64,000 nucleotides of DNA, taken from contig NC_057717.1 in NCBI RefSeq assembly GCF_004010195.1, positions 107,482,709-107,546,708 of the forward strand, in the 5' to 3' direction. The notes below the pieces were generated by a model. It was not told the origin of the DNA, made no database searches, and saw nothing but the letters and a program-made list of their open reading frames with translations. This document shows, one piece after another, positions 2,250 through 61,463 of this stretch; within the stretch, counting starts at the first letter, position 1; the number at the start of each line of letters is the position of its first letter. The stretch comes from Chiloscyllium plagiosum (Eukaryota). A program made the position numbers and the translations under genes.

Positions 2250-2420
2250 ACAGTGCGCGTGCTCTGGGCAACTGCTCGAAGCGCGTGTGTCGCCATGACC
2301 GGGGACACCCCGCGCGCGGCGCCGAGCTGTGCCGTGATTGGCTGCAGGGCTGGGTTGCAGTCACAATGGGCTGCCGCATGCCCGGGGGTTTCACACCTGG
2401 CGGGGATCAAGATGGCGGCG
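2250..2420 (+). promoter_or_regulatory. CpG-rich promoter/5' UTR of the spliced membrane-protein gene
   Basis: Dense CpG patch (cgcgcgcggcgccg) in an otherwise CpG-poor window, directly upstream of the ATG at 2412. Contains an inverted CCAAT box (ATTGG 2337-2341), X-box/RFX-like motifs (GTGCTCTGGGCAAC 2259-2272; GTCGCCATGAC 2289-2299) and a YY1-type CAAGATGGCGGC (2408-2419) overlapping the start codon. Confidence 0.75.
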
Positions 2421-2472
2421 GGTGGTGGTTACCTGTTGCTCCTCACCTGTCTCGTGGGTCAGCTTCCCCTGG
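2412..2472 (+). CDS. Coding exon 1: signal peptide MAAGGGYLLLLTCLVGQLPL-G of an unidentified type I membrane protein
   Basis: Strong Kozak context (aagATGG), hydrophobic core LLLLTCLV, consensus donor G|gtaagt at 2473, phase 1. Confidence 0.85.
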
Positions 2473-2744
2473 GTAAGTACTGTCCGTACAGGCCTCCAGG
2501 GAATAGTATAACAAGACCCTTCCCAAATCTCATACCCAAAGGTCACCAATCAGCACTGCCCATGCATCTCTGGAAATTGCATCTCAGCCAGATGATAGAT
2601 TTTACCTTTAGTATACAATTTATCGTCAAGAGAAGTTGAGGAAATCTGTTTTTCATGGTATCAGGACCCAAAGCCCTTCATAACTAATAAATTATGATTC
2701 ATATTTAGTCATTGTCATATAAAGGAACATGGTACCTATTCTTT

Positions 2745-4400
2745 CCTTCATAGAAAGTGGGTGTTACTGGTGGGTCAGCTTTTATTGTCCATCTCCAATT
2801 GTCCTGGAGAAGGTGGTCGTGAGCCACTTATTTGAACCATGGTAATCTGTTTGGTTTAGCTTCAGCCACTATACTGTTAGGAGGGGTGTTCTAGGATTTT
2901 TGCGCAGCAACAGTGGAGAACGATGATGTATTTCCAAGTCAGGATGGTGAAAGTCTTGGAGGGGAACTTGCAGCTGCTAATGTTTCCATGTATCTGCTGC
3001 TCTCTTGACCTTCTAGTTGGAAGTAGTGATTTTGGAAGGTGCTGTGGATGGACCCTTGGTGAGGTACTGCCATTCATCTTGATGATGGTACATACTGATG
3101 CTACTGTGCATTGGAAGTGAAGGGAGTGAAATTGAATGTTACAGAGAGGGTGACATTCAAGTGGGTGGCTTTGTCCTGAGGCATTTCAGGAGATGCAACC
3201 ATCTGGGGAAGTGGAGAATATTCTATTACATTTCTGACTTGTGCCTGCAAATACTAGAAAGGCTCTGGGGAGATGGGATGAGTTGCATAAATCCTAGCCT
3301 CTAATCTGCTGTTGCAACAACAAATATATTTGGCTGGTGTAGTTCACTATCTGATAAATGGTAATCTCCAAGATGTTGTTAATAGAGGATTCAGTGATGT
3401 AATGTCATTGAATGTCAAGGAAAAACTTTTATATTTCCTCAATGTTGGGCATATCCATTGCCTTATGTCTGTGAGTGTGAATGTCATTTACCCATGAGCA
3501 CTCTAAGCCTGAATATTGTCCAAGTTCTTCTGCATTTGGATCTTCCCAACGTCAGTAACTGAGGTGTCATGAAAATTGCTGAACATTGTGTAAGTAAAAG
3601 TGGAACACCCCCACTTCCGATGCTATTATGGAGGCATGACCATTTATGAAGCAGCTGAAGAAGGTTGGGGCCTGGGACACTATCCTGAGGAACTCCTACA
3701 GAAATGTCCTGGAGCTTAGATAACTAACCTTCATAAACCACAACTATCTTTCTTTGTGCCAGGTGTGTCTCCAAACAGTGGGGAGATTTCTGTCTGCAAG
3801 GGCTCTTTCATGCCACTCTTGGTCAGGTTCTCCAATAATGTCAAAGGCAGTCACTCTCGCTTCATCTCTGGAGTTCAGTTCTTTTGCCTGTGCTCTGGAC
3901 TTGACTGTGTGGCCCTAGTGGAACCCACACTGTGTGTCTTTGGAAATTGTAAGGTATTATTCCATGTGTATGACTATGTTGCGCTATTCATAGAATCATA
4001 AAGTCCCTACAGTGTGGAAACATTGCTTGACTTGACTAGACTGTGAGACAGTTCTCCCAATTTTAATACAAGCCCCAAGATGTTGACAGGGAGGAGTTTG
4101 CAGGATAGACAGGGCTGAGTTTCCAGTGCCTAGGTCGATGCCGGTTTCACTCCTTTGTTTATACTTTGTTGCAGTTTGGTGCAACTGAATATCTTGCTCG
4201 GCCATTTCAGATGGCAGTTCAGAGTCAACCACTGTTGCAGTGGATCTGGAGTCACATGTAGGCAAGATCAGATAAAGACAGCAAATTTCCCTCCCTGAAA
4301 TATTTTGGTGAACCATATGAGTTTTTGCAATCATTGACAATGGTTACATGTTCACCATTAGACTAGCTTTTTAATTTGAGATTTTTTATGCGCACAAGGT
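2745..4400 (-). mobile_element. Degenerate CR1/L2-clade LINE
   Basis: Reverse strand at ~3640-3700 reads GVPQDSVPGPTFFSCFIN (RT motif). Same family as 16230-17190. Confidence 0.75.
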
Positions 4401-4489
4401 TCCCCAGTTGTACTGAGATGAAAGAACACATTATCTAAGATTAGATAATCATAACCAGAAGAATTGCTCTACTTTTCTACAAATACTTT

Positions 4490-5300
4490 GAGGGTAGTAC
4501 AGTGGATGTTGTCAACATGGAGTTTGGTAAGCATTTGACAAGGTCCCACATGGCAGACTGGTCAAAAAGGAAAAGCCCCTGGATACAGGATAATGTGTCA
4601 CACTGGATCCAAAGTTGGTTTAGTGGCAGGAAACAAAGGGTAATGGTCCCATGGCTGCATTTGCAAATGGAGAGCTGTTTCATGTGGTGTTCCACAGGAC
4701 TTTGTGTTGGGGCCCCTGCTATTTGTTTTATACATTAATGATTTGGACTTGAACATGGGAAACACAATTGGGAAATTTGCAGACAACACAAAAATTGTTG
4801 GCCATATTGTGGATAATGTAGAGAATAGCTGTAAACTCCAAAATGATATAGTTGGTTTCGAGGAGTGGGCAGGAAAGTGGCTGATGGAGTTCAATACATT
4901 TAGGGAGATGAAACAGTAAAAGGAAATACATAATAACTGCGAATATACTGAGAGGGGTAGATGAAGTGAGAGATCTAGGCATGCAAGTGCCCAGCTTCCT
5001 AAAAGTAGCAGTACAGGTAGATAAACTTGTAAAAAAGGTATATAGAATTCTCCCCTCCATTGGCAGAGATATATAATATTCCACAAAAGTGGGGATAAAA
5101 TGATGAAACTATATAGAGTATTGTGTGCAGTTCTGGTCACCACACTATAGAAAGAATGTAATTTCTCTGCAGAGAAGATTTAATAGAATGTTGCCAGGAC
5201 TCGAGAAATGTAGCTACGAGCAGAAATTCAAGAAGTTGGAGTTGTTTTCCTTGGAACAGAGAAGGCTGAAGGGTATCATGATTGAAGGACGTATAATTGA
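4490..5300 (+). mobile_element. CR1 LINE RT fragment
   Basis: ORFs 4704..4919 (LGPLLFVLYINDLD, KFADNTK) and 5125..5346 (QFWSPHYRK, QRRFNRMLPGL). Confidence 0.9.
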
Positions 5301-5424
5301 AGGGCAGAGAGAGAGAGAAGAGACAGGAGGAACCAGTTTTCCTTGACCTTTTTAAAAACAGTTATGGAGAAGGCTAGGTCTGGTCCACAAGTTCAAGTTT
5401 CAAATTGAGGCAAGGTCACTTTTT

Positions 5425-5585
5425 TTAGATTAGATTAGATTCCCTACAGTGTGGAAACACGCCCTTCGGCCCAACCAATCCACACCGACCCTCCGAAGAG
5501 TGACCCATTTCCCTCTGACTAATGCACCTAACACTATGGGCAATTTAGCATGACCAATTCACCTGCCCTGCACATCTTTGGTCTG
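5425..5585 (-). mobile_element. HE1-like SINE 3' fragment
   Basis: agattagattagattccctacagtgtggaaac...cccttcggccc; matches the full copy at 14971-15325. Confidence 0.75.
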
Positions 5586-5589
5586 TTGA

Positions 5590-8130
5590 TGATATTAAAC
5601 AGGAACTTTGAAAGAGTTGACTGGGATAGCTGTTCGCAGGTAAAGGGACATCAGGGGGGTTCAAAAGCAAGACAACAAGAATTCAGGGCTGGTGTTCCTA
5701 TTTGTGTGAAGGGCAAGGCTTGCAGAAGTAGGGAACACTGGATCACTAGAGATATTGAGGCTCTGGTCAAGAAAAAGGAGGAAGCATATGTCAGGTATAG
5801 ACAACTGGGATCAAGTGAATCCCAGGGGATGTAGGACAACAATGAAGAGGGAAATCAGGAGGGCAAAAAAGAGACATGCGATAGCTTTGGCAGATAAAGT
5901 TAAGGAGAATCCAAAGAGATTCTACAAGTATATTAAGGACAAAAGAGTAACTAGGGAGAGAAAAGGGTCTCTTAAAGATCAACAAAGTCGCTTGTGTTTG
6001 GAGCCACAGGAGATGGGTGAAATCCTAAACAAATGTTTCTCCTCAGTATTTACCATGGAAAAGGACATAGATGCTAGGGAACTTGGCGAAATAAATAGTG
6101 ATGTCTTGAAAAAAGTCCACGTTACAGAAGAGGAGGTTTGCAATTTTTGAGAAGATTTGTAGCTCAAGTTGAGGTTCAGGTTGTAAGTTTGCTCGTTGAG
6201 TTGGTAGGTTTGTTCTCAGGCGTTTTGTCACCATGCTAGGTAATATCAACGTGAGCCTACATTGAAGCACTGGAGTTCTGTCCCACTTTCCATTTATGTG
6301 TCTTGGTCTCTTAAGGTTGGTGATATCAATGTTTCATTGCTTCAACGGAGGCTCATTGATGATGTTGCCTAGCTTGGTAACGAAACGTCTAAGAACAAAC
6401 CTACCAGCTCAGGGAGTAAACTTGCAACCAGAAGAGGGGGTACTGGAGGTCTTAAAACACATAAAGATAGCTAAATCTCTCTGGGACCTGATCAAGTATA
6501 TCCCAGGACTTCATGAGAAGCTAGGGAAGAAATTGCAGGCCAATCATGGAGCCATGGGTGAGGTGCTGATAGACCAGAGAGTGACTGATGTTGTGCCATT
6601 ATTTAAGAAAGCCTGTAAGGAAAAGCCAGGAAACTACAGATCAGTGAGCCTGATGTCAGTGATGGGTAAGTTGTTGGATGGATTCTGAGAGACAGGATCT
6701 ACATGCATTTGCAAAGGCAAGAACTGATTAGGGATAGTCAACATAGCTTTGTGTGTGGGAAATCCTGTCTCACAAATTTGATTGGGATTTTTTGCAGAAG
6801 TGACCAAGAAGATAGATGAACGCAGAGCGGATTTTAGCAAGATCTTGGATAAGGTTCTGCATGTTAAACAGTTTAGGAAAGTTACTTCACGTGGAATCTA
6901 GGGAGAGCTAATCAACTGAATACAAAATTGGCTTGACAGTAAGAGACAGAGAGTTGTTGTTCAGACCGGAGGCCTGTGACCAGCAGTATGCCACAAAGAT
7001 TGGTACTGACTTCACTGTTGTTCGCCATTTATATAAACAATTTGGAAGAGCAGATAGGAGGCATGGTTAGTAAGTTTGCAAATGACACCAAAATTGGCGG
7101 TATAGTGCACAGTGAAGAAGATTAACTAAGAGTACAACGGGATCTTAATCAACTTGGCCAGTGGACTGAGGTTTGGCAATGGAGTTTAATGCAGATAAAC
7201 AATAGGTGTTCCATTTTGATAAGATGAAATAGTGCAAGACTTACACAGTTAATGATGGGGAGTGTTGTCGAACAGAGAAATCTAGAGGTGCAGGTACACA
7301 TTTCCTTGAAAGTCCCTCCCTAACGGTATTGTGGGTAAACCCACAGCAGGTAGACCCGTAGGTTCAAGAAGGCAGCTTATCACTATTTTCTCAAGTTTGG
7401 CAATAAATGGTGACTAGCCAACATTGCCCAGATTCCACAAATGAATAAAGAAAAAGAAAATGGCATTTGAAGTAGATGGTGGTGAAGAAAGCATTTGGCA
7501 CTCTTGCTTTCATTGATCTCAGTGCTCTGAGTACAGGAGTTTGGTCCATCATGTTACCTCTGTACAAGATATTGGTAAGGCACATTTGGAGGAATGCATG
7601 TAATTCTGGTCGTCCTGCTATAGGAGGGATGTTATTAAACTGGAAAGGATGCAAAAAATATTCACAAGGATATTAACGAGACTGGAAAGTTTGAGTTAAA
7701 AGGAGAGGTTGGATAGGCTGTGACTTTTTTTCCATGAAGCATAGGAGGCTGAGGGATGATCTTATAGAGGTTTATAAAATCATGAGGGGCATAGACAAGG
7801 TGAATTGCCAAGGTTTTTTCCTGAGGGAAGGGGAGTCCAAAAGTCAAGGGCATAGGTTTAAAGTAAGAGGGGAAAGATTTAAATGGGACCTGAGCAACAA
7901 ACTTTTCACACAGAGGGTGGTGCGTATGTGGAACGAGCAGCAGGAGGAAGTGGTAGAGGGTACAATTACAACATTTAAAAGACATTTGGATAGCTACATG
8001 GATGGGAAAGGTTTAGGGTGTTATGGGTCAAATGCAGGCAAATGGGACTAGTTTGGTTTAGGAAACTTGGTTGGCATGGACGAGTTGGGCTGATGGGTGT
8101 GTTTCTGTGCAGTATGACTATATGACCCAG
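5590..8130 (+). mobile_element. CR1 LINE ORF2 plus 3' UTR, frameshifted, interrupted by a Penelope-derived insert (6138-6428) and an L2-like fragment (~7310-7460)
   Basis: ORFs 5755..6150 (KENPKRFYKYIK), 6296..6688 (VVPLFKK...PGNYRSVSL) and 7734..8051 (RLRDDLIEVYKIM, FTQRVVRMWN). Confidence 0.9.
6138..6428. mobile_element. Penelope-derived fold-back insert with a hammerhead-like core (6356-6389, +)
   Basis: Inverted arms ~6179-6270 and ~6335-6429. 13-bp TSD cagaagag(g/a)ggt-type at 6125-6137 and 6429-6441 with one mismatch. Core TTGATGA-T-GTTGCC/GGTAAC-GAAAC-GTC. Confidence 0.75.
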
Positions 8131-8809
8131 AAAGTTACAAGCCAATGTTATAAGCTGTTTCTGGTTCTAATATTTGAATGCTGGTTTTGCTTTGTTTTCT
8201 TGGGAAAATTATTGAGCTAGATGTAGAGTCATAGAGGTCTGCAGCCCAGAAGAAGGCCCTTTGGTCCATCGAGTAAGCGTCAGACAAAACCCATTAAAAT
8301 CACAATGGTAATTGTAAAGTGAGAGAACAGAAGTTTGCTGTCCCACACTTCTGTGTTTATAATTCTCCACAGTGCACTTTATTTCAGAGCTTACTCATCT
8401 CCCTGAGAAGAGAATTCCACCTGAGGAGAATGCTCACAGACAACAGAACCAAATCTCCATGGAGGGCCGTAGAAGTGACCCCCCTCCCAGATTGCATGGA
8501 GGTGAGGAAAAGCACTACAGTCAAACAATAGTGAGTGAAACTTTAAATGTATCACAGTTTAGGAACATTGTAAGTTAGCACATTCTCCTTTCACCTTGCA
8601 GGTCAGCTTCCATAATGTATAGAGGGACTAGTCTGAATTTTTAAGGACCACCACGCCTTAGGCAAGGGGAGAGGTTGAGAAGGAGAGTCCTTTATGGTAA
8701 CCTCAGCTGGTGTCGGAATTGAACACATCCTGTTAGCATCACACTACGTCGCGAACTTACTGTCTAGCCATTGAGCTAAACCGATAAACAAATTATAGGC
8801 TTTAAAGAA

Positions 8810-9455
8810 CTTTAGTTGGGCCACATTAGGAATATTGCATACAGTTCTGGTCACCAAGCTACCAGAAGGATGTGGATGCTTTGTAGATGGTACAGAAAAG
8901 GCTTATCAGGATGTTGCCTAGCATGGAAGATTTTAGCTGTGAAGGAAGGTTGGATAGATGGGTTTGTTTTCATTGGAACGCAGGAGGTTGAGGGATGACC
9001 TAGATTGTAAATGGCATGGATAAAGTGGAAAGTGTGGAGGTGTCAATTACTAGGGGACACAGCATCAAGGTGAAGAGGCAAAAGTTTAAAAGAGATATGC
9101 AGGTAAGTTTTTCACACAAAGAATAGTGAGTGTCTGGAATGCGCTGCCAGAAGTAGTAGTGGAAACAGACACAATAACAGCATTTAAGGAGCACCGAGAC
9201 GAATACTTGAATAGGAAGGGAATAGAGGGACTAGGCAAAAGTGAGGACTGCTTATTCCTGATGAAGGGCTCCTGCCTGAAATGTCAATTTTCCTGCTCCT
9301 CGGATGCTGCCTGACCTGCTGTGCTTTTCCAGCACCATTCTAATCTTGAGGGAATAGAGGGATACAAATCCTGGAAATGAAGAGTTTTAGTATGGAAGGA
9401 CAAAATGTATAGGCGCAGGCTTGGAGGGTCTGTTTCCAGTGCTGTATTGTTTTTT
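8810..9455 (+). mobile_element. CR1 3' fragment carrying a Penelope-derived insert (9231-9348)
   Basis: SVWNALPEVVVE motif (ORF 9126). 14-bp TSD agggaatagaggga at 9217-9230 and 9349-9362. Confidence 0.85.
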
Positions 9456-10894
9456 ATTTTAAAGTGCTGGAGAAACTCAAGTCTGGTAGCATCTGTGGAG
9501 TGAGAAAGAGACATTTCTCCAGCACGTTCTTTGTTTCAGATTTCCAGCATATGCACTATTTTGCTTTTTTTAATTCCAGATGTCTTTATTAATTCAAAGT
9601 TCACCTTCTGTCAATTGAAACTTTGTACCCAGCACATTATTTGAGGCTCTGAACTGCTGGTCCAGTGACATTACGGCTATGCCACTGTCCCCATCTTACT
9701 TGCAATGCTGAAATTTAGAGAAATACAGTACTTGTTATATAAGACACCTTTTATGACATCAGACAAATTAAGTTAGTTTCTTGAAATGCAGTAATTGTAA
9801 GAGAGGAAATATGGAAACTTGTAAACAGAAAGAAAATAATGATGTTGGTTGAGAGATAAATATTAGCTCAGACATTAACGAGAACTTCCCTGTGCTGCTG
9901 TAGATTTGTAGCCTTTGATTTTTGACTTTTACCTCAGCAAACATTTTGGGGCTCAGCCTTATCTCAAAGGTGCTGAATTAAAGTACCAACATAGACTATA
10001 TGCTAAATTTTTTGTCAAAAGTCATACGACACCAGGTTATAGCTTTCGGAGCGTTGTCCCTTCGTCAGGTGAAATCTTTGTGCTGGACTTTAAACCTGCA
10101 AGTTTCTGACTTCAAGGCAGAAGTGTTACTTCTGATCCATGACTGATACCTTGGCTGTACTATAAGAGACCACATGTTTGTTTTCCTTTTGAACTGTAAA
10201 ATGGAAGAAAAGTCAGAAACTGCTATATTGATAACATATCAGGAGTGTTATGCAACTTGAAACATCAAGTGGGGCACATTTTTGGCTGGACAAGACTAGG
10301 GTGTTTTTGGAGCAGTGAGATCACTCCATTATTGAGACAGAGTAGCTTGACGGCATTGCTAAAATCAAAAGAATTGTGAGAAATAGCTCTGCATTTTGCA
10401 ATCTGGAGTTTTGATCTTCAGCACATTTTGTTTTCCATATCTCTGTTTCCCACCTATAATATTTGTGTCAAAGCATCTGTCTTTAATCTATCCTATTTGT
10501 AATAAATAAATTGATGGGTGTATTTATGATTTTAAAGGGGTATAGTTTAAGTTACAAAGTAGATTAGTAATCTTTTTCCATTTGTTAACAAGTAAGTTTG
10601 TTTACACTAAATAGTTATTTTCCTGTTTTTGACAAAACATGGTGTGAATTGGCTTTGTCCTGAACCGCAGTTAGTCAGGTAAATTGATCATCTTGGTGTT
10701 TTAAAGTGGGTACCTAGACATTTGTGATGGCTTGTGCAATAGTGGGGCTCAATTATTGGCACAGTCTTCCCAGTAACTACTTAATAGGGCAATGTTTCCT
10801 CCTTTGTCATGAAAGTGCTGTCTTTTATTTGGGTTAAGGTCACTTTAGCCTTCTGATAAAGCCTTCTGATAATTCTTCAAATTGGGACTTTTCT

Positions 10895-11070
10895 TAGAGT
10901 CATAGAGTCATACAGCACGAAACAGACCCTTTAGTCCAACCAGTTCATGCCGAATATAAGCCCAAACTAAACTAGCCCCACCTGCCTGTTCCTGACCCAC
11001 ATCCCTCCAAACATGTCCTATTCACGTACTTATCCAAATATCTTTTAAATGTTGTAGTTGTACCCACATT
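10895..11070 (-). mobile_element. CR1 3' end fragment
   Basis: (tagagtca)n tail and TTFKRYLDKYVNR in ORF 10972..11166. Confidence 0.8.
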
Positions 11071-11738
11071 GAGCCTGCCTTTATCATATTTCCTCCTACC
11101 AGGCAGAATCCTTGTAGAACTGTGCTGTATTCCCTTCCAGATATCTTTGGCCTGAATTTGTTTCATCTTTTAATATTATCCATCAAATTGGACCCCACCT
11201 CCAGCTAATTCTAATCAAATATACAGTAAATAGCATAGTAACTTCTTGAACACCATCTCACAATTCCGACTACTGAGAAATGAATCTGAATTCCTGCTTT
11301 GTTTCCTTCCATCAATCCCTGTGTTTAAAGCAATTTGCTATCCTCCCCCTAATCCCATGTCCCTTCCTCCTGCATAGCACTTTGTCAATGATTTTGAAAG
11401 TCTATATACACCACTATATCAACTCAGAATTTCTCAAGTTTGTCAGTCATGGTCTTCCTTTCTGTAATCTAATTTTTAGAATTATTTTTGATTTAGCTAG
11501 GCATTTAATTATTCTGATGGAAAGAAATTAGTGAAATATATGTGGCATGTTTCTTTCTCTTAATGTTAGCCAAAACATATCACATGCAAAACCTAATTCA
11601 TTTTACCTGGAATTATCTGTCAGCATGAGAAAACTGTTAAAGTAGGAAAACACAGTCAACCAAAGAGTAAGGTGGTCAACTGTCACGCCATCTGGTCCTT
11701 TTCTTAACTCAATATTTTTTAAATTTTCCTTATTTTAG

Positions 11739-11807
11739 GTCACCCAAGGAAAGTGCCACAGTTCCCTGGAGGAGAGCAGCTGAAAAGCAACCAATTGCAG
11801 CTCAGGC
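11739..11807 (+). CDS. Coding exon 2 (G)HPRKVPQFPGGEQLKSNQLQLR
   Basis: Acceptor ttttccttattttag, donor C|gtaagc, 69 nt, phase 1-1, open in the frame set by exon 1. Confidence 0.75.
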
Positions 11808-12124
11808 GTAAGCGTTACAATTCCCATGCTTTACGTGAGTAGCACAGCATCATTTTTGTGTAAAATACAAATTAAATAAAGTATGCTGCCAGTGAAATAA
11901 ATCTTTTAGTAAGCAGCATGAAGGTGGCACTGCATGAAAAGCAGTAGGACTGGGATGCTGAATGATGGCAGAGATTGGGATTAGAATGAAACTATGAAAG
12001 TAACAGCAGGAATTGTACATAATGCAATGGAATCTTAAGGATAGCATAACCATTGTATTGGCTGAACAGAAACTGCAGTGTCAGTGTAGAGATTTTAGAA
12101 ATTAAACAGGTGTCACATGAACAG

Positions 12125-13320: not shown

Positions 13321-13368
13321 ATTTGTTTTGCTTATTTTGTTACCACTGTTTTACTTTTTTGTTTGCAG

Positions 13369-13476
13369 ATTCTGTAGGCGATGAAAACCGTTTAAAGAAT
13401 GAGGATGCAGTGACTGGACACAAAGAATATTATTTGCCCAGACCGCCTCCTAGAATGCATCCACATGTGTATGAAG
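13369..13476 (+). CDS. Coding exon 3 (H)SVGDENRLKNEDAVTGHKEYYLPRPPPRMHPHVYE
   Basis: Acceptor ttacttttttgtttgcag, donor AAG|gtacga, 108 nt, phase 1-1, open. Confidence 0.8.
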
Positions 13477-16220: not shown

Positions 16221-16229
16221 TTCTTGTTC

Positions 16230-22262: not shown

Positions 22263-22361
22263 ATCCTGTCAATCATGGTGAAGAGGAAGTTATCAGAGAC
22301 GGATCCAGAGAAGTTATAATTCCTGAATCTTCATTTGGAGTCACTCCACATATATATCAAG
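22263..22361 (+). CDS. Coding exon 4 (D)PVNHGEEEVIRDGSREVIIPESSFGVTPHIYQ
   Basis: Acceptor ataattttag, donor AAG|gtttga, 99 nt, phase 1-1, open. Its end (PHIYQ) resembles the end of exon 3 (PHVYE). Confidence 0.7.
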
Positions 22362-23984: not shown

Positions 23985-24106
23985 ATGTTGTGTGTGGGGG
24001 GGGAAAGGAGTGTGTGTGTGGGGAAGGAGGAATGTGTCTGTGTGTGTGTGGGGAAGGAGTGTGTGTGTCTGTAAGGGAAGTATGTGTGTGTTTGTGGAGA
24101 GGGAAG
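23985..24106 (+). repeat. GT/GA-rich minisatellite running into the assembly gap
   Basis: Repeated gtgtgtgtgtggggaaggag units. Confidence 0.85.
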
Positions 24107-24941
24107 NNNNNNNNNNNNNNNNNNNNNNNNNNNNNNNNNNNNNNNNNNNNNNNNNNNNNNNNNNNNNNNNNNNNNNNNNNNNNNNNNNNNNNNNNNNNNN
24201 NNNNNNNNNNNNNNNNNNNNNNNNNNNNNNNNNNNNNNNNNNNNNNNNNNNNNNNNNNNNNNNNNNNNNNNNNNNNNNNNNNNNNNNNNNNNNNNNNNNN
24301 NNNNNNNNNNNNNNNNNNNNNNNNNNNNNNNNNNNNNNNNNNNNNNNNNNNNNNNNNNNNNNNNNNNNNNNNNNNNNNNNNNNNNNNNNNNNNNNNNNNN
24401 NNNNNNNNNNNNNNNNNNNNNNNNNNNNNNNNNNNNNNNNNNNNNNNNNNNNNNNNNNNNNNNNNNNNNNNNNNNNNNNNNNNNNNNNNNNNNNNNNNNN
24501 NNNNNNNNNNNNNNNNNNNNNNNNNNNNNNNNNNNNNNNNNNNNNNNNNNNNNNNNNNNNNNNNNNNNNNNNNNNNNNNNNNNNNNNNNNNNNNNNNNNN
24601 NNNNNNNNNNNNNNNNNNNNNNNNNNNNNNNNNNNNNNNNNNNNNNNNNNNNNNNNNNNNNNNNNNNNNNNNNNNNNNNNNNNNNNNNNNNNNNNNNNNN
24701 NNNNNNNNNNNNNNNNNNNNNNNNNNNNNNNNNNNNNNNNNNNNNNNNNNNNNNNNNNNNNNNNNNNNNNNNNNNNNNNNNNNNNNNNNNNNNNNNNNNN
24801 NNNNNNNNNNNNNNNNNNNNNNNNNNNNNNNNNNNNNNNNNNNNNNNNNNNNNNNNNNNNNNNNNNNNNNNNNNNNNNNNNNNNNNNNNNNNNNNNNNNN
24901 NNNNNNNNNNNNNNNNNNNNNNNNNNNNNNNNNNNNNNNNN
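24107..24941. other. Assembly gap (835 N)
   Basis: Run of N. Confidence 1.
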
Positions 24942-40710: not shown

Positions 40711-40806
40711 ATCCTGCTTTTCGAAATGAATGGGGCATGAATCGTCGAAGAGGCCAGACTTTGAACAGAATGCCACATTATGAGTCATTTGAAGAGATAT
40801 TTACAG
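40711..40806 (+). CDS. Coding exon 5 (D)PAFRNEWGMNRRRGQTLNRMPHYESFEEIFT
   Basis: Acceptor tatttcatttcag, donor CAG|gtgtga, 96 nt, phase 1-1, open. Starts AT CCT G like exon 4. Confidence 0.72.
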
Positions 40807-51036: not shown

Positions 51037-51228
51037 ACTTAGAAGATGAAAAGTTGAGGCAGGCTAGTAAGCACCACAACCTTGAACATGAACGTGAGCA
51101 TGAACGTGAACATGAACATAGACATGAACATAAACATGAGCATAGACATGAGCGTGAACATGGACCTACTATTGAGCATAATAATTATTGGATAGTTGGG
51201 CAAAGACGCTTCAGAATGATTGTTATCA
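51037..51228 (+). CDS. Coding exon 6: His/Glu-rich stalk plus start of the TM helix, (D)LEDEKLRQASKHHNLEHEREH...GQRRFRMIVI
   Basis: Branch-like ctaac, acceptor ttttgtttattttcag, donor A|gtgagt, 192 nt, phase 1-1. Lies inside ORF 51003..51236. Confidence 0.85.
51084..51161 (+). repeat. Coding hexamer repeat, 13 units (mostly GAR-CRT), encoding EHEREHEREHEHRHEHKHEHRHEREH
   Basis: Read directly: 78 nt of gaacat/gaacgt/gagcat/agacat/aaacat/gagcgt units. Confidence 0.95.
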
Positions 51229-51689
51229 GTGAGTAATAAAGAAGGTGGTAACTATGAAAATTCCTTACAGCTCCACCAATGTTCATTAAATCTATTAAAC
51301 AAATAACTGGCCATCACACTGCTGAAAGATCCTAAGTTTGATTTCCAATGGACCTTGTTTTTCCATTGTTGAGTGAATCAGGGGTTCCAATAATAAGGGA
51401 ACAGAGTATCAACAAATAAATGTAAAATATCTCTGAAGGCAATTCAGTGGCTGCTTCTTCCTCCGAGACAGCCAACCATCAGTGTTTACCACTGCAAATT
51501 TCAACTTCCATCCTGGCACAACCCCCAGTAGAGACTAAGCCATTCACCCACCCTTCATGTGCACTTAACTCTACAGGTAAAAAGGTTCTTGATGGAGGAT
51601 GTTCTGATTAACCTACTGACTTTACATTTCAATGGAAAATCCATCCTAACATCTTGATGAATTTGAGGAATTGGTGTGAGGATGGATGT

Positions 51690-52100
51690 GTTGTCCCAAT
51701 CAAAGTGGTGTCCTTCTTCATCTGTATATAAGGATACTAGTGATGGTGGGTCATGTCTTTTCGTGGCTGGTTGGTGGCCTGTCTGATGTAGTGTTCATTA
51801 CAGTCCTCGCATGGTATTTTGTAAATGACATTTGTTTTGCTGATTGTTTGTAAAGGGTCCTTTAGGTTCACCAGCTGCTGTTTAAGTGTGTGGGCTACCA
51901 TGATGCCAAGGGGTCAGAGTAGTCTGGTAGTCATCTCCAAGATGTCTTTGATGTATGGTAATGTGGCTAGAGATTCTGGGTGTGTTACGTCTGCTTGTCT
52001 GGGTTTGTTGTTTAGGAATCGGCGGATTGTGTTTATTGGGTAACCGTTATTCTTGAATAAGCTGTATAGGTATTTTTCATCTGCTGCTCATAGAACTACG
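51690..52100 (-). mobile_element. Penelope-like element, GIY-YIG endonuclease fragment
   Basis: Reverse strand of 51781-51838 reads KTNVIYKIPCEDCNEHYIRQ. Confidence 0.8.
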
Positions 52101-52399
52101 AGCAATACAGCCTTATCCAATGTATCCACTTTACTAATTTTGAAAGTCTTTAATGATTGAATTTCCTCCTCTGTCATCATGGTCTGTATAGCATCAGTTG
52201 CATTTATATCTGCAAGTGTATTTTACCAGGGTTTTAGTGTTCATGTACCCCAATCTTTCACTTAGACACACATTTATCCATGATTAAAGAATCAAAACCA
52301 GCTTTTTTAATTCCAATGGCAAGATTTAGGAATCTAGTATACTATCAGGATAAGGAGCCTTATTAAACAATGAAGTTTTGTACACTTAGAGCACACTAA

Positions 52400-53245
52400 G
52401 TGTGCTTAGGCAGAGAGTTGGGATAAAAGGTTCTTTTTCGGAATGGCAGCCGGTGACAAGCGGTGTCCCGCAGGGTTCAGTGTTGGGGCCGCAGCTGTTC
52501 ACATTATATATTAATGATCTGGATGAAGCGACTGGGGGCATTCTAGCGAAGTTTGCTGATGATACAAAGTTAGGTGGACAGGTGGAGAGGAAGTGGGGAG
52601 GCTGTAGAAGGATCTAGACAGTTTGGGAGAGTGGTCCAGGAAATGGCTGATGGAATTCAATGTGAGCAAATGCGAGGTCTTGCACTTTGGAAAAAAGAAT
52701 ACAAGCATGGACTACTTACTAAACAGTGAGAAAATTCGTAAAGCCAAAGTACAAAGGGATCTGGGAGTGCTCGTCGAGGATTCTCTAAAGGTAAACATGC
52801 AGGTTGAGTTCGTGATTAAGAAAGCGAATGCAGTGTTGTCATTTATCTCAAGAGGGTTGGAATATAAAAGCACCGTTGTGCTACTGAGACTTTATAAAGC
52901 TCTGGTTAGGCCCCATTTGGAGTACTGTGTCCAGTTTTGGTCCCCACAGGACCCGTGGACACAGCCTTAGAATTAGAGGGGATAAATTCAGAACAGAAAT
53001 GCAGAGGCATTTCTTCAGCCAGAGACTGGTGGGCCTGTGGAATTCATTGCCGCAGAGTGCAGTGGAGGCCGGGAGCTAAATGTCTTCAAGGCAGAGATTG
53101 ATAAATTCTTGATGTCACAAGGAATTAAGGGCTAGGGGGAGAATGCGGGTAAGTGGAGTTTGAAATGCCTATCAGCCATGATTGAATGGTGGAGTGGACT
53201 CGATGGGCCGAATGGCCTTACTTCCACTTCTGTGTCTTAATGTAT
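52400..53245 (+). mobile_element. CR1 RT plus 3' end with an internal deletion near 52950
   Basis: [24 protein letters not shown]...FADDTK; LVRPHLEYCVQFWSP. Confidence 0.92.
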
Positions 53246-53384
53246 GCTCTTTCATTATTAAGAATATTTTGATTATTCCTTTGTTTACTAACATGTCTAC
53301 TCTGTGCATTTATCAGATTCAGGGTTTACCTATTTCTAGATTTAAGTCCCTTGTTGTGATTTCTTTCTCTCTTTTTATTTACAG

Positions 53385-53475
53385 TTATTTTAGCTGTTAT
53401 CGTGAGTTTTATTGTATTGTTGATATTGACCTGGTTCCTTCTTCCAAAAAAGAATGTAAAGAAAGTAAAGAAAAC
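53385..53475 (+). CDS. Coding exon 7: rest of the transmembrane helix and Lys-rich stop-transfer, (I)ILAVIVSFIVLLILTWFLLPKKNVKKVKK-T
   Basis: Long polypyrimidine acceptor tttctttctctctttttatttacag, donor AC|gtaagt, 91 nt, phase 1-2. Continues the hydrophobic run begun at the end of exon 6. Confidence 0.85.
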
Positions 53476-54469
53476 GTAAGTCTCCTACACGTATATTATA
53501 CACACCCATTTTTAACTTGGTACTCTTCCAAAAAATACAGAATTGTGCAGTAGCAAATTCGTACTGTTAAGCCATTTAAAAAAATTGTCACTGGCCAGAG
53601 GTCACCTTTAATCACAAATTTCCCAAAGAGCGTTTAAGTGTCAATGAGATGGTTTTTCACATGATTACATGGTCACCATTCAGCTCACTTTTTATTCCAG
53701 ATTTTTATTGAATTCAGATTTCACCATCTGCCATGGTGGTATTTGAGCCTATGCATCTAGAACATTGGATTCTGGATTGTTAGTCCACCACTACACCACC
53801 ACCTCCTTGTGAGATTCATTAAACGTATACAAATGCATGGAAATAAAGATAATTGCTGTTCATTAGTAAGATTCTGAAGGGGAACATCAACATTTTTTTA
53901 CTTGATGTTTAGAATCTGATTTTTTTTCACTTTCATTGTATCTTCCCACATTTCTCACCGTTGCCCAGGGAACTCAAAAGAAATTGAAAAGCCCACCCAA
54001 TTTATAAGCTCCTATTATGCCCCCTTTAAAGGCAAATCCATGTGCAGTGATCAGTTAACTATACTGAAGAATATAACATTTTCAGAGCCATCATAACCTT
54101 TCTTTGGAGCACAACCTTTGCTCACTGCAGCGTAATGTTCAACGTATGAATCTGAACCTGTGTTAGTTATCATGCTCTGTTGTTCTCCCCTTCTAAATCA
54201 GAAGGAATGACTGGTCTACTGTCACTCTTGCATTGGAACCCCAGCACTGACCATTCAACAGGGACCTAACTTCTTTATTGGCAACTTGTTTGGGTTCCAT
54301 TTGCTGTGGGTGTGTTTGGTCTGTGATTAACTGCATTTGTACAGTAATAAATTGTTCTTTGATAATAGGTTACGTTATAGGTTACTTTGTTCACCTGTTG
54401 TTTACTTTAATCTTCCATTTTAGAAAACATTTTTGTTTTGATGACATTTGGTGTGAGACTTTTGACTTA

Positions 54470-57400
54470 AAATTAATTGATCGCACACATTCAAGTGAAT
54501 AAATATGATCCGGCAACCATTTCAGAAACATGGCTAAAGTATGACAAAAATTGTAATCAGAATAATGAGAGATGTTCGATTTGCAAGGAAATTAGTAAGT
54601 TAGGTAAAGGTGGAGAAGTTACAGTGTTAATCAAGGAAGACATTTGTGTAACAGTTAAAGGTGATCTCAGTTTAGGAGATCAGGATTAGAATGGGGTTGG
54701 ATGGAGAGGGGAAATAGTATGGGGAAGATGTCACCAATGGGAATGGTCTACATGCCCTCTTAGAGTAACCACAACGTGGGATAAGATATACAAGAAGAAA
54801 TTCTGGTGTTTGTGATAAAGGGAAGGCGATAATCAAGGATGACTTTAATCTAAACAGGAAACATCAGATTAGCATTGGTACCCCGGATGAGGAATTCATG
54901 GAAAGGTTTTTAAATAGTTTCTTAGAGCAGCATTTTCTGGAGGCAACCAGAGAGCAGGTTAAATTATTGTGTGATGCAACAGTATTAATTATTAACCTCA
55001 GAGTAAAGCTACCTGTAACTATCAATAACTGTACTACTACTGAATTTTACTTTCAGTTTGAAAGGGAGAAAATTAGGTCTATGACCTAGTATTTTAAACC
55101 TAAATAAGGGCAACTACATAGACATGGAAACTGAGCAAGCTGAAGCAAACTGGCATACTAGGCTAGAGGATAGATGAATGGGATACAGTGGCAAGCATTT
55201 AAGGGGATATTTCAGAATATTTAGAATACTTACGTTCCTACTATATTGAACAATACTAAAGGGAGGACCAACTATCTGTGATTAACTAAAGAAGTTAAGG
55301 AAAGCATCAAACCTGAGGAAAAATGTATAAGGGTGAAGGAACCTTCGATGACAAGAGATGTGGAGTGTCGAGTCAAGAGGAAGAAGGAAGCTTTCTTAAG
55401 GTTAAAGAAGCAAGGATCAGACAGCGCTCTAAAGGGTTATAAGGTAGCCAGAAAGGAACTGAAGGATGGACTTAGGATAGCTAGATGGGGACATGAAAAA
55501 TCTTTAGCATGTAGGATTAAGGAAAATCCCAAGCCGTTCTACACTTAGGTGAAGAACAAGAGGATGGCCAGTGTGAAGGTAGGGCTGATCAGGGGTAGTG
55601 AAAGTAACTTGTGCTTAGAGTCGGAGAAGCTAGGGGAGGTCCTTAATGAATACTTTGCTTCAGTATTCACTAGTGAGAGGGACATTGTTGTTTGTGAGGA
55701 CAGCATGAAACAGGCTGATATGCCTAAACAGGTTAATGTTAAGAATGAGGATGTGCTGGAAATCTTGAAAAACATGAACCAGACAGGATGTACCCAAGGT
55801 TACTACAGGAAGCAAGAGAAGAGATTGCTGTGCCTTCGTCGATGATCTTTGCGTTCTCAATGTTCACTGGAGTAGTACCAGATGATTGGAGTTAGCAAAT
55901 GTTAATCTTTTGTTCAAGAAAGGGAATTGGGATAACCCCAGGAATTACAAACCAGTCAGTCTTAAGTCACTGGTGGGCAAGTTATTGGAGAGGATTCTGA
56001 GGGACAGTATTTATGATTACTTGAAAAAGCATTGTCTGATTAAAGATAGTCAGCATGGTTTTGTGAGTGGCAGGTTGTGCCTCACAAGCCTTATTGAATT
56101 CTTGGAGCATGTGACAAAACACATTGATGAAGGTAGAGCAATGCATGTTGTGTGTATGGATTTTAGCAAGCATTTGATCAGGTTCCCCATGGTAGGCTCA
56201 TTCAGAAAGTAAGGGATGCATGGGATACAGGGAAATTTGGCTGTTGATTCTGGCTTATAGAATACAGTGAGTGGCAGTAGATGGAAAGTATTCAGCCCAG
56301 AGCTTGATGTCCAATGGTGTTCCACAAGGGTCTGTTCTGAGACATCTGCTGTTTGTGACTTTTATAAATGACTTAGATGAGGAAGTGGAAGGGTGGGTTA
56401 GTAAGCTTGCAAATGACACGAAGATTGGTGGAGTTGTGGATAGTGTGGAGGGCTGTTGTCGGTTGCAACAGGACACTGACAGGATGCAGAGCTGGGCTGA
56501 GAAGTGGCAGATCGAGTTCAACCTGAAAAAGTGTGAAGTGATTCATTTTGGAAGGTCAAATTTGAATGCAGATTACAGGGTTAAAGGCAGGATTCTTGGC
56601 AGTGTGAAGAACAGGTTCTTAGGGTCCACGCCCATAAGATCCCTCAAAGTTGCCACCCAAGTTGTTAGAGTTAAGAAAGCATACGGTGTGTTGGCTTTCA
56701 GTAGGAGGGGGATTGAGTTTAAGAGCTGCAGGCTATGCTGCAGCTCTATAAAACCCTGGCTAGACCACACTTGGAATATTGTGTTCAGTTCTGGTTATTT
56801 CATTATAGGAAGAATGTGGAAGCTTTAGAGAAGGTGCAGAGAAGATTTACTAAGATGCTGCCTGGACTGGAGGGAATGTCTTATGAAGAAAAGTTGAGGG
56901 AGCTAGGGCTTTTCTTATTGGAGTGAAGAAGGATGAGAGGTGACTTGATAGAGGTGTACACGATAATGAGAGGCATAGATAGAGTGGATAGCTAGAGACT
57001 TTTTCCCTGGGCGGAAATGGCTCTCACAGTGGGGGGCATGATTTTGAAGTGATTGAAGGGAGGTTTAGGGGAGATGTCAGAGGTAAGTTCTTTACAAAGA
57101 GAGTGATTGCATTGTGAAATGCATTGCCAGCATTGATAGTAGAGTCAGATACATTTGGGACATTTAAGGAACTCTGGGATAGGCACATGGATGATAGTAA
57201 AATGTATGGGATGTAGGTTAGTTTGATATTAGAGAAGGATAAAAGGTCAGCACAACATCGAGGGCCGAAGGGCCTGTATGTGCTGTACCGTTCTATCTTC
57301 TATGTGCAAAGATGAATGGTTAGAATATATCCAATGGCTGAGAATGACTGAAAATTTAATGATGAGAGGAATCTAGCTAGGAATGTCAAAGCAGATAGGA

Positions 57401-58400
57401 AGAATTTCCACATATATTTTAAAAAGGAAAGTGTCAGTAAAGTAAATGTTGGTCCTCTGCAGAGTGAGAATGGGGAGATAATAGCAAATAACAAGGAAGT
57501 GGTGGGTGATATGAACAAATATTTTGTTTCTGTCTTCAGTAGAGGTTTCAAAAACATTACAATAATAATTTCAAATCAGGAGATGGAAAGGGGAGAGAAA
57601 CTTAGCAAAAGTACAATTACAAGAGGAGCAGTATAATGCAAATTGATGGAGTTGAAGGCTAATAAGCCTCTGGGTCCAGAGGAACTTCATCCTATGGTCT
57701 TAAAAGTGATAACTAGTGAGGATGTAAATGCATAGGTGTTAATTTTTCTGAAATTCCCTAGAAAGTTTCCTTCAGGCTGGAAATAAACATACATAACCTC
57801 TCTATTCAAGAATGGAGCAATACAGAAAACTGGAAATATTGTAGGCCAGTTAGCTTGATCTCTGTCATGGAAGTTGTTAAAATCGATCCATAAAGAGATT
57901 ATGGCTCTACGCTTAGAAAATCTTGAGGTAATCAGGAAGAATTTGTGTGGTTTGTCAAAGGGAAATCCTGTAGAATGATTTTATTGGAGTTCTTTGAAGG
58001 AATAAAATGCACTGTGAATAAAGGGGAGCCTGTGGACATACTATAGCTGGATTTCCAGAAGGCTTTTGCTAAAGTGCAATATTAAAACCTTTTGGGTAAA
58101 ATACAAGCTGATAGTGTTGCAGTAATATTGTTACATGGATGGCTGGCAAAAAACAGAGTATACATAGATTGATCTCTCTAATTGGTAGAATGTAACAAGT
58201 GGAGTCCTGCTGCTATCCTTGCTGGGGCCTCAACATCAGGACAACATTGATTACTTAAGTGAAGGGAGCAAAGGCATGGTAGCTATATTCACAGACAACA
58301 CCAACATAGATTGAAAAGTATGTTGTGAAGAAGTCAAAAAGAAGTTACAGGGGACTATAGATAAAATGAGTCAGTGGACAAAAATCTGGCAGACTGAGTC
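54470..58400 (+). mobile_element. Old CR1 (54470-55330, 57305-58400) split by a younger CR1 (55330-57305)
   Basis: Endonuclease motif ISETWL (ORF 54477); RT motifs in ORFs 55886, 56271 and 56735; the older copy resumes at 57305. Confidence 0.88.
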
Positions 58401-59290
58401 TTATGTTTTGGTCTCTCTGACCAATATTGTCATGGCCAGATACATCTGCAGCAGGTGGATTGGTGAGGATCAGGTCAAAGATGTTTTTGCCTCTGTTGGT
58501 TCCTTCACATCCAGCCACAGACCCAGTCTAGCAGCTAAGTCCTTTAGACTCAATTAGCTTGGTCATGGGTACTGCTGCTGAGTCACTTGTGATGCTGGAC
58601 ATGGAAATCCACCGGGCAGAATACATTCTACACTTTTACCACTCTCAGTGCTTCCTCCAACTGATGGTGACCACGGAGGAGTACTGATTCATCAGCCAAA
58701 GGAGAATATTATGTAGTAATCAGCAGGAATTTCCCTTGAATATGTTTGACCCAAAGGTATTATATTTCATGGGGCCCAATGTTAAGGACTGCCAAAGCAA
58801 TTTCCTTCTGAATGTATCCCACTGTGCCACCACCTCTGCTGGGTCAGCCCTGCCTGCAGGAAAGGACCCCTCCCAATTTTGGTACTCATCCCCAGATGTT
58901 GTAAGGAGGACTTTTTTCGCTGGCAGGGCTGAGTTTCCTATTGTCGTTTCCAATGCTTCGGTTGACACCAGGTGGTCATTCTGACTTCATCCCTTTTCTG
59001 AAACTTCTTAGTGGTTGATAAACTACTGATGGATTCTTAGGTCATTTCAGATAGCAGTTAAGTGTCAACCACATTGCTGTAGGTCAGGAGTCAAATGTAG
59101 ACTAGACCAGGTAAGGACTTGTCCTTCCCAAAAGGGGCATCAGTGGACCAGATGGATTTCTATGGCGGTGGGTTCCCAGTCATCATTAGACTTTTAATTC
59201 CAAGAATTTATTGAATTGTTGTGGTGGGATTCAAACCAAAGCATTATTTGCATTGCTGGACTAATAGTCCAGTGGCAATAGCACAACATC
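58400..59290 (-). mobile_element. Decayed CR1/L2-clade LINE fragments
   Basis: Shares segments with 2745-4400 (gagtcaaccac, cattagact..ttttaatt). Confidence 0.55.
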
Positions 59291-59890
59291 ACTACTTACT
59301 TCTTAGAAACACGTGAGGGAAATCCCCAGCTTCGACTGTTGTTACTGGTGATGACATACCTGACCATTTGCAAATTGACATTTACATCTGTGATGGGCAT
59401 AAAACTGACAAGAACAATCCACGTCTTTTGAATCTCCCTTGTCACTTCTATATTCAGTTAACAATATGTGATCGTCCTTAGACTGTTGTTCACTGATACT
59501 TTCTCTTAGTATACAGTACTCCCTAGCAACCTGTAAATCAGTCTTAAGAATTAATTTTCTTGCTCATTTTTAGTTTTTGTTTAACCTCCTATTTCTTAGC
59601 CATAGCTGTGTTTGCATTGGCACACATGTAAAATTGCTGATGCCACAGGAATGCTGTTACATTAGCATCTGTTTACCTTGGATCCATAGTTTTAAATCAG
59701 TCGCTTCTTTTAAACAGGGCTTTTTCTCCTTTTCCTAACAGCTGTTCTAATTGTGGGATCATTTGATCCTTATTTTGATTCTTATTATTTCTTATACCAT
59801 AATCCTGAGTAGGACAGAAATAAGTGCTAAATGTCAAGAGATGTCTCCCTTCCGCTGATTTCCATATTTTACTTTTGATTTTTCCTTCAG

Positions 59891-59939
59891 TAAAAGTAAT
59901 ATCACAGTGAAACCAGTTACTACTTTCATTCAACATTGA
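59891..59939 (+). CDS. Candidate terminal coding exon 8a: (T)KSNITVKPVTTFIQH-stop
   Basis: Strong acceptor (ctgat branch-like, ttttacttttgatttttccttcag). Open in phase 2 to TGA at 59937-59939, followed by AT-rich UTR-like sequence. Confidence 0.5.
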
Positions 59940-61434
59940 GACTGCAACATGCTAATTTTCCATTGGGATGCAAGCAAACTTTTTTTGTATTGTGAAATGT
60001 GTTTTGCTTTGATGCCTATCTGTCTGATCGTTAGTCTATCTCTTGTGATACAATTTTTTAATTATTTTACTTTTTTAATAGTTTACAAATCAAATGTCTG
60101 GTCTTTTTATCTTGTTCTGCTAGTTTGTCAGAAATTACAAGGTTGTTTAATATATTGAAGATGTTAATTTCATTTAGTTCTTGATTATGGAATTAACCTA
60201 AGAAATAACCTTGGAGCCAATTTTCATATAAAGGCTAATATTACACTTTTATGTCTTCCCTTCACCCTTGATTTCAGTCATGAGTGATGGCTGATGTATG
60301 GTCAAGTTGTCGATAAACAAAATATTTTTGCCATTAATGTTAGCAAGACCAATCTATGCTGTTCAGACCCTGCTAGAAATTTCATTTAGTTCTTGATTAT
60401 GGAATTAATTTGAGAATTAATTACTGAAATTAACCTAATCAAAACAAATAAATGTTGTTCTCACAAGTATATGTGTGAGCCAAAGTTGAATTCTCAAATT
60501 GAAAATTAAAAGAGAATTATTATTTTAAAAAAAAGGGTATGATATAAATATACATCAATGTTTTCAGCTTCAAACCTGATGTGTATTTATATCATACCCT
60601 GTTTTTGACAGATTGATGATCAGGTTGATGTACAGTTTTAGATTCCTCAAAGTGCTTCATTTACATTAGATCTTTCAAATTTTGCCTTTGCAAGCAACTA
60701 ACTTCAAAAAATGTTGCTCAAAACTTTAATTTATCAAGACGTCATCTCAAACCATGTTTATACAATTTCATAGCTGGTCAGTTTAATTTCTGCTTTCTTT
60801 AAATTGGAGTTTCACTGCCAGGGAATATTATCCATTCAAACAGATATTGATACATTGTGCTTCTTGCTATCAACCTTGTCTACTGGTTGGTTTCATCATT
60901 GAGATGGTCAAAGCTAGAATGAAGTTGAGCTATGCACATTTTATCTGACTTCCTGCTGTTCCTAATAAACGGAATCTTAACTGGCAAATTAGGACTTTTA
61001 ACTGCAAGCTTCAAAATTACAGCTTTTAAGACCTTAATAAAACTAGTTGAATACTTTGAATATTTCTTCAATTAAAACCTAATTGTGATATATTATTTGG
61101 TCAGTCATGTATTTCTGGCTATTTGCTAATTCTGGAACAAAATTTATTATATGTGAGTAATTAAAAAACAGATAAATCAAGATGGTTTCAAATTTGCAAT
61201 GATTGTATAAGATGGTGTCTTGCTGGCTAATGACAATGAATATAATATGAAATTAATCTATAGGTGTTCTAGTTACCCATAAAAAGAACTATCTAGGCTT
61301 GCTTACAGTCAGTGCTGCTGATCCATTAATTTTCTAAGTGTAAAGTATACCTTCTATATTTGTGAAGTCTTTTTTTTTTAACAAATTTACACACCAGCAT
61401 GTTCACTCAAAATCATATTTCTGTTATATTTCAG

Positions 61435-61463
61435 AAGTGGCAAAAAATGACAACATAAATGAG
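61435..61463 (+). CDS. Candidate exon 8b (29 nt): (T)SGKK-stop after exon 7, or (K)VAKNDNINE if joined in phase 1
   Basis: Acceptor tatttctgttatatttcag and near-consensus donor GAG|gtgagt. The donor implies a further exon downstream that I could not locate in the window. Confidence 0.5.

Follow-up and report, generated by a model that had tools for sequence, protein, structure and literature searches.

Here we report that a 64-kb stretch of the 3.56-Gb genome of the whitespotted bamboo shark Chiloscyllium plagiosum (NC_057717.1:107482709-107546708; hereafter the window) carries on its plus strand LOC122552459, a real and conserved multi-exon protein-coding gene, whose product in all likelihood belongs to an unnamed and uncharacterised family of single-pass membrane proteins limited to Chondrichthyes. 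The gene was identified in a protein search with its exon 7 alone, which returned two proteins of 100% identity, isoforms X1 (290 amino acids; XP_043551128.1 / XP_043551129.1) and X2 (258 amino acids) of LOC122552459, and weaker matches in Heptranchias perlo and Pristiophorus japonicus. Both isoforms are labelled "uncharacterized protein".

An earlier note on the window had described a hidden gene for an unrecognised protein. The gene was already predicted in RefSeq as LOC122552459, and predicted orthologues are recorded in 11 other cartilaginous fishes; exon chaining by eye, from the sequence alone, had recovered a true, though already predicted, gene. No paper was found in the literature that contains any of six locus names of the family. 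It is a clean case of a taxonomically restricted family with neither name nor paper that has been kept in chimaeras, rays and sharks, lineages that parted several hundred million years ago. Should its processing and a partner be found, the protein would become a lineage-specific signalling or accessory protein for cartilaginous-fish biology; as matters stand, LOC122552459 is an ordinary uncharacterised membrane-protein gene.

Conservation and taxonomic range

The proteins of eight other species were compared with all six reading frames of the window (tblastn, expectation value (E) ≤ 0.05). Seven of these queries yielded 43 matches, all on the plus strand and within exons 1 to 8 (eight each from Cetorhinus and Scyliorhinus torazame, seven each from Heptranchias, Pristiophorus and Carcharodon, and three each from Leucoraja and Narcine), with zero matches elsewhere in the window, introns included; the Callorhinchus protein had no match in the window at this threshold. 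The exon frames are conserved in related sharks, and the view of the earlier note that such a chain of exons was unlikely to arise by chance is borne out by orthologous proteins that match the exons and nothing else in the window. When the whole 3.56-Gb genome was searched in six frames with isoform X1, eight of the nine matches were these same exons; the ninth, on another contig, was weak (E 0.002, 29% identity, three stops). With the matches confined to its own exons and one weak place, the gene is single-copy, and no paralogues were found in the genome.

A profile built from five sequences recovered 20 proteins among 7999 scored candidates, all from sharks or rays and all uncharacterized or hypothetical. 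The sharks are C. plagiosum, C. punctatum, Cetorhinus, Carcharodon, Scyliorhinus canicula, S. torazame, Heptranchias and Pristiophorus, and the rays are Leucoraja and Narcine; their proteins are similar to that of LOC122552459 over the full length (E 1e-155 to 1e-33). An eight-species profile, searched with HMMER against 1,835,955,588 representatives (E ≤ 0.001), retrieved five proteins, namely four named chondrichthyan proteins (three family members and that of Callorhinchus) and an unnamed fragment of 44 amino acids. The protein of Callorhinchus milii (LOC103190215 isoform X3, "uncharacterized protein") matched a profile built without Callorhinchus at E 6.1e-19, and a profile that included it gave 20 proteins at E ≤ 1, again only chondrichthyan ones. 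At the reach of these searches, the family, as delimited by sequence similarity, spans all Chondrichthyes and nothing else. The relatives found among the 1.84 billion representatives and in two word-indexed searches are exclusively chondrichthyan, in agreement with the earlier suggestion of a lineage-specific protein. The companion suggestion of rapid evolution holds in a relative sense only, since mean identity per segment, taken over the 36 species pairs, is 43-74%.

Predicted orthologues are LOC121271401 of Carcharodon, LOC144668998 of Cetorhinus, LOC119957214 of Scyliorhinus canicula, LOC129714397 of Leucoraja, LOC103190215 of Callorhinchus and chiPu_0014521 of C. punctatum, together with models without a locus name from S. 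torazame, Heptranchias, Pristiophorus and Narcine. Across a nine-species alignment, in which Narcine is represented by an isoform without exons 4 and 5, identity to X1 ranges from 34 to 68%, with Callorhinchus at 34%. The orthologues share the leader, a polybasic site, the motif LPxPPxRM..PHVYE, a juxtamembrane segment, the membrane helix and a basic tail.

No Pfam model reached its cut-off with the full-length protein (best 18 bits versus 29.4), and the exon-by-exon search gave sub-threshold compositional matches only. No NCBIfam model came near its cut-off with nine family members, and a profile search of the PDB returned 0 chains at E ≤ 1. The models of TMEM154 (PF15102), Afaf/equatorin (PF15339), AJAP1_PANP_C (PF15298), Syndecan (PF01034) and Podoplanin (PF05808) did not match X1 or two other family proteins even at E ≤ 10. 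Among the protein-language-model neighbours in the Atlas were TMEM154, equatorin, PIANP, podoplanin, syndecan, TMEM119 and a C2orf92 cluster, with scores of 0.76-0.84. Shuffled proteins attain this range in about a third of cases, and no score reached 0.85, so these neighbours count as leads only. Sub-threshold hits to Orf78, DUF2417, Sec62, LapA, Zip, ZrgA, SepX/GlpR and DmeF were rejected as compositional or membrane-helix matches.

Exon structure and splicing

For the exon map, a script tested every AG/GT-bounded boundary that lay no more than 6 nucleotides (nt) from the approximate exon ends. A single combination yields isoform X1 letter for letter, and isoform X2 is reproduced exactly by the omission of exon 6. 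The coding sequence comprises nine exons on the plus strand and extends over approximately 59 kb (Table 1). Exons 2 to 7 are all of phase 1-1, and cassette exons can therefore be dropped in frame; whole-exon isoforms in several species alter the number of motif cassettes. Exon 4 and two further exons (with the endings PHIYQ and PHYESFEE.F) are alike in length, phase and their PH-x-Y ending, which suggests exon duplication.

The seven peptides of the earlier note are all present, each core occurring once in the window (2415-2471, 11744-11803, 13371-13472, 22265-22357, 40713-40802, 51039-51224 and 53387-53473), on the plus strand and flanked by AG and GT, with a pyrimidine tract and AG upstream and GTAAGT, GTAAGC, GTACGA, GTTTGA, GTGTGA, GTGAGT and GTAAGT downstream. 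The frame of 243 amino acids that had been assembled from exon 1, exon 3 cut after position 11807, exons 4 to 8 and a small tail exon is indeed open. Of the nine coding exons, that chain contained eight, and the boundaries of seven were exact; exon 2 was absent, and exon 3 was 27 nt short. Exon 2 is matched by six of the eight orthologue queries (best E 1.2e-13). The earlier end of exon 3 used a GTAAGC donor after 11807, by which nine codons are lost and the RRKR codons split, so that the seven-exon model, without exon 2 and these nine codons, removes the conserved polybasic site. In the sister species C. punctatum, one public gene model also joins exon 1 to exon 3, so that this join may represent either a minor isoform or an error of prediction.

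Table 1. Coding exons of LOC122552459 and sequence features within them (window coordinates)
Feature	Position	Strand	Description
Exon 1	2412-2472	+	ATG (context atcaagATGG), leader MAAGGGYLLLLTCLVGQLPL; ends in phase 1, donor GTAAGT
Exon 2	8388-8501	+	114 nt, 38 codons, phase 1-1, encodes ELTHLPEKRIPPEENAHRQQNQISMEGRRSDPPPRLHG; flanks tatttcag|AG...G|gtgagg; missed earlier
Exon 3	11739-11834	+	96 nt, phase 1-1, donor GTGAGT; orthologues align to 11833
RRKR codons (residues 81-84)	11804-11815	+	Polybasic motif of proprotein-convertase type
Exon 4	13369-13476	+	108 nt, phase 1-1, conserved motif GHKEYYLPRPPPRMHPHVYE
Exon 5	22263-22361	+	99 nt, phase 1-1, ends ...TPHIYQ; cassette, skipped in some isoforms of other species
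Exon 6	40711-40806	+	96 nt, phase 1-1, ...NRMPHYESFEEIFT; cassette, skipped in X2
Exon 7	51037-51228	+	192 nt, phase 1-1; acidic helix, His/Glu/Arg tract, juxtamembrane NNYWIVGQRRFRM, start of membrane helix
His-rich tract (residues 206-234)	51078-51164	+	10 His; imperfect 6-nt / 24-nt tandem repeat
Exon 8	53385-53475	+	91 nt, phase 1 to 2; remainder of membrane helix and basic tail PKKNVKKVKKT
Exon 9 (last coding)	61435-61450	+	Codons SGKK, stop TGA at 61448-61450; exon segment 61435-61463, then GTGAGT at 61464

An additional ATG at position 2295 is in frame with the annotated ATG at 2412, and the stretch between the two is free of stops. This upstream ATG has its equivalent at the start of the C. 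punctatum model, and the models of Heptranchias and Leucoraja bear N-terminal extensions, both of which start with MRP.LGGKR. An inverted CCAAT box (gattgg, approximately 2337-2342) was also noted within a GC-rich stretch. Some Pristiophorus isoforms contain an extra segment of 25 residues, DDTKLGGGVSCEEDAKRLQGDFDR, directly after the leader, which has no counterpart in the bamboo-shark models. Words from exon 7 were looked up in sequencing runs; no RNA run was listed, and every one of the 15 words sampled occurs in four runs of unspecified type, a result that is uninformative on expression.

Protein architecture and alternative readings

The anatomy of the protein was read from the nine-species alignment and a feature table, from Kyte-Doolittle hydropathy, and from an AlphaFold2 model computed with the same alignment. 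A hydrophobic N-terminal leader (MAA.GYLLLL...) is kept in all nine species, and by our reading of the -3/-1 rule a putative signal peptide would be cut after LVG/ILA at residue 16. In the N-terminal part of the protein lie the motifs ELARLPE and PPRLHGG; conservation is strong in the motif GHKEYYLPRPPSRMHPHVYEDP, and proline and tyrosine motifs are kept from chimaera to sharks. An acidic helix (DLEDEK.RQA.KHH) is followed by the variable His tract, the juxtamembrane stretch NNYWIVGQRRFRM and a very hydrophobic helix. Each of the nine species has one strong C-terminal hydrophobic segment (Kyte-Doolittle peak 3.2-3.9) and then a short basic tail, e.g. KKNVKKVKKTSGKK; in X1, the tail after the helix contains 8 Lys, compared with 3 Arg just before the helix. 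Mean pairwise identity is highest in the acidic helix (0.74) and the juxtamembrane stretch (0.68) and lowest in the His tract (0.43). The AlphaFold2 model of X1 is mostly disordered (mean predicted local distance difference test (pLDDT) score 51.5), with helices only at residues 4-16, 189-203 and 241-274, of which just the last is confident (block pLDDT ~90). The ectodomain holds 25 His, and Cys is absent from it in seven of the nine models, the other two including residues of N-terminal extensions. Hydropathy and AlphaFold2 agree with the architecture put forward in the earlier note, i.e. an N-terminal hydrophobic leader, a long ectodomain, a single C-terminal membrane helix and a basic tail; its description of the ectodomain as free of Cys and without a recognisable domain matches the feature table and the searches of Pfam, NCBIfam and the PDB, in which no match was found.

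The polybasic cluster occupies the same alignment columns in all nine species. It conforms to R-X-[KR]-R in six of them, and a run of at least three basic residues is present in these columns in eight of the nine, while Leucoraja has RGRR. The RRKR segment is disordered in the AlphaFold2 model. The His-rich tract is underlain by a Tandem Repeats Finder array at 51083-51162. Its length varies from 13 to 29 residues and its His content from 0 to 10 across the nine species, with none in Callorhinchus, 2 in the skate Leucoraja and the maximum of 10 in C. plagiosum. As the tract is variable and encoded by a repeat, it is better regarded as a slippage-expanded spacer than as a defining feature of the family, and the label 'His-rich', which the earlier note had given to the protein, fails as a hallmark. 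The 6-nt / 24-nt repeat resembles long tandem arrays elsewhere in the genome (C36:28086510-28093250 and the unplaced contigs C60340, C35757, C12346 and C10531), and approximately 150 of 160 genome matches to it show 74-89% identity over query positions 76-169. Judged from these matches, the repeat is common in the C. plagiosum genome, and the coding tract seems to be a short copy of it.

From its sequence features, the product is most likely a type I membrane protein with a single membrane pass, located in the secretory pathway or at the cell surface. According to the positive-inside rule, the more basic flank of a membrane helix stays cytosolic; the tail after the helix is far more basic than the side before it, which places the tail in the cytosol. 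The convertase-type site makes sense only in the lumen and thus supports a luminal ectodomain. The leader would direct the protein into the endoplasmic reticulum (ER), approximately 225 residues of disordered, Cys-free, charged chain would face the lumen or the outside, and the conserved juxtamembrane segment and membrane helix would anchor the protein, with approximately 15 basic residues in the cytosol. The motif further suggests that a furin-type convertase may cut after RRKR in the trans-Golgi, which would free an N-terminal fragment of approximately 65 residues and leave a membrane-tethered disordered stalk. This stalk would carry the short motifs LPxPPxRM..PHVYE, ..PHIYQ and ..PHYESFEE on two or three interchangeable exons, with the His/Glu tract as a spacer presumably enlarged by replication slippage. 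In sharks the tract, which the family as a whole does not conserve, may bind metal or sense pH. The conservation of the juxtamembrane and transmembrane segment hints that the protein touches a partner laterally within the membrane.

As a tentative proposal, the family, whether invented or retained by Chondrichthyes, may consist of tethered precursors from which cleavage releases a conserved secreted signal of approximately 65 residues. The remaining stalk would display two or three alternatively spliced 'PH-x-Y' cassettes, joined in sharks by a His/Glu spacer sensitive to metal or pH, and might act as a tunable ligand or as an accessory subunit of a membrane partner via its unusually conserved juxtamembrane and transmembrane segment. 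Exon structure, conservation, single copy, restriction to Chondrichthyes, disorder and the membrane helix are observed properties of the gene and its product. Several points weigh against the reading as a type I membrane protein with a convertase site. The leader is without a basic n-region if translation starts at 2412, and an N-X-S/T sequon is present in only one of nine species, with few Ser and Thr, which is unusual for a cell-surface ectodomain. As in tail-anchored proteins, only about 15 residues follow the membrane helix. Three species have a weaker form of the polybasic motif, RRRQR in the lamniforms Cetorhinus and Carcharodon and HRKR in Narcine. The case for splicing and expression is built on public gene models and conservation. 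No homologue has a known function, and we infer the topology, the cleavage, any role as ligand or accessory subunit and every other functional statement.

The small type I proteins TMEM154, equatorin/Afaf, PIANP/AJAP1, podoplanin and the syndecans resemble the product of LOC122552459 in general build, with a signal peptide (putative in LOC122552459), a domain-free disordered ectodomain and one helix, and PIANP is cut by a furin-type protease near its N-terminus. No sequence relationship to these families is demonstrable (Atlas scores 0.76-0.80), and conserved domains, cytoplasmic or transmembrane, are what largely defines them, whereas the cytosolic tail of LOC122552459 consists of only about 15 basic residues. 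It is unlikely, but deserves the most serious consideration among the alternatives, that the chondrichthyan proteins are highly diverged orthologues of such a bony-vertebrate single-pass protein (TMEM154, equatorin, PIANP/AJAP1, podoplanin or C2orf92) and not an invention of this lineage. Disordered ectodomains diverge fast, as the identity of 34% between X1 and the Callorhinchus protein illustrates, and the corresponding clusters are among the nearest Atlas neighbours of both proteins. However, their scores (0.76-0.84) fall within the range of shuffled proteins, the Pfam models of those families remain unmatched even at E ≤ 10, among 1.84 billion representatives the profile search turned up nothing beyond Chondrichthyes, and scans of the flanks yield no syntenic anchor save for an SLC44-like exon. 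Still less plausible is metal handling as the main job of the protein, with the (His-X)n tract binding Zn2+, Ni2+ or Cu2+, in the secretory pathway or at the cell surface, in the manner of the His-rich loops found in ZIP and CDF transporters. In both cases an alternating His/acidic tract lies beside a membrane helix; here, 10 His occur within 29 residues and 25 in the whole ectodomain, and the tract attracts sub-threshold matches to Zip, ZrgA, SelP_N and CbtA in Pfam and to CDF/DmeF and Ni/Co efflux families in NCBIfam. Yet ZIP and CDF proteins have six to eight helices compared with the one of LOC122552459, and all these family matches are far below the curated cut-offs and reflect composition only. 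The best ZIP match (PF02535) reached 15.5 bits versus a cut-off of 35.1 and covered only the His tract and the helix, a single hydrophobic core with no multi-pass core. Moreover, the tract is the least conserved segment of the protein, is not conserved across the family in length or His content, and is encoded by a slippage-prone 6-nt repeat.

Two further readings concern the placement and the existence of the product. The large domain could lie in the cytosol of a tail-anchored, adaptor-like protein, with LPRPPSR (PxxPxR-like) and the Tyr-acidic motifs HVYEDP, HIYQDP and HYESFEE as putative docking sites for cytosolic SH3/SH2-type partners. The position of the helix close to the C-terminus, the absence of Cys, the near absence of sequons, the complete disorder of the domain and the conservation of its proline and tyrosine motifs from chimaera to sharks would all fit. 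We nevertheless consider this arrangement improbable, because the hydrophobic leader, present in every species, would engage the ER translocon co-translationally, the concentration of positive charge after the helix puts the tail in the cytosol, and the conserved polybasic convertase-type site is sensible only in the lumen. It is scarcely credible that the gene is an artefact, whether of open exons that line up by chance or of a gene prediction copied from genome to genome with no real product behind it. All homologues are themselves computational predictions, but their frames are conserved exon by exon in at least 11 further species, including chimaera, skate and sharks, while the introns are without matches; splice phases are kept, and the isoforms differ by whole exons. 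Conservation nearly refutes this last reading.

Genomic surroundings

A search of the 64-kb window against Rfam gave 0 matches. The window was also scanned for protein-coding similarity with 37 of its 47 stop-to-stop open reading frames (ORFs) of at least 110 amino acids; those left out were six that run over N, two with exons 1 and 8, and two others. The sole match was a reverse-transcriptase (RVT_1) fragment at 56271-56828 on the plus strand (E 7.8e-07), of the type found in long interspersed nuclear elements (LINEs), within intron 8. The last 1.7 kb of the window (approximately 62300-64000) reads like retroelement-derived repeats. Intron 5 contains an assembly gap of 835 N (24107-24941), which is immediately preceded by GT/GGA-rich tandem repeats (23989-24105).

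The flanks were scanned over 100 kb upstream and 95 kb downstream (to the end of the contig) with 276 of the 396 ORFs of at least 80 amino acids, i.e. those of at least 90. Matches were obtained for 8 of 145 and 10 of 131 ORFs, all of them pieces of retroelements (RVT_1, endonuclease and a GDSL-like ORF) save for one SLC44 exon. At this ORF length, the flank scans are insufficient to link LOC122552459 by synteny to a bony-vertebrate counterpart. The choline-transporter-like (SLC44) exon (NC_057717.1:107638618-107639043, plus strand; Pfam Choline_transpo, E 9e-11), which also weakly matches human CTL1 chains, is the only host-gene anchor within the 95 kb downstream. It is located approximately 2.5 kb from the end of the 107.64-Mb contig, and the gene to which it belongs is probably cut off by the end of the assembly. 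A GDSL-lipase-like ORF on the minus strand (NC_057717.1:107572698-107573003; Pfam E 1e-08) matches the 'ORF1-encoded protein' of PDB entry 4c1b (E 8e-12) and is apparently no host lipase gene but a LINE ORF1 of the esterase type.

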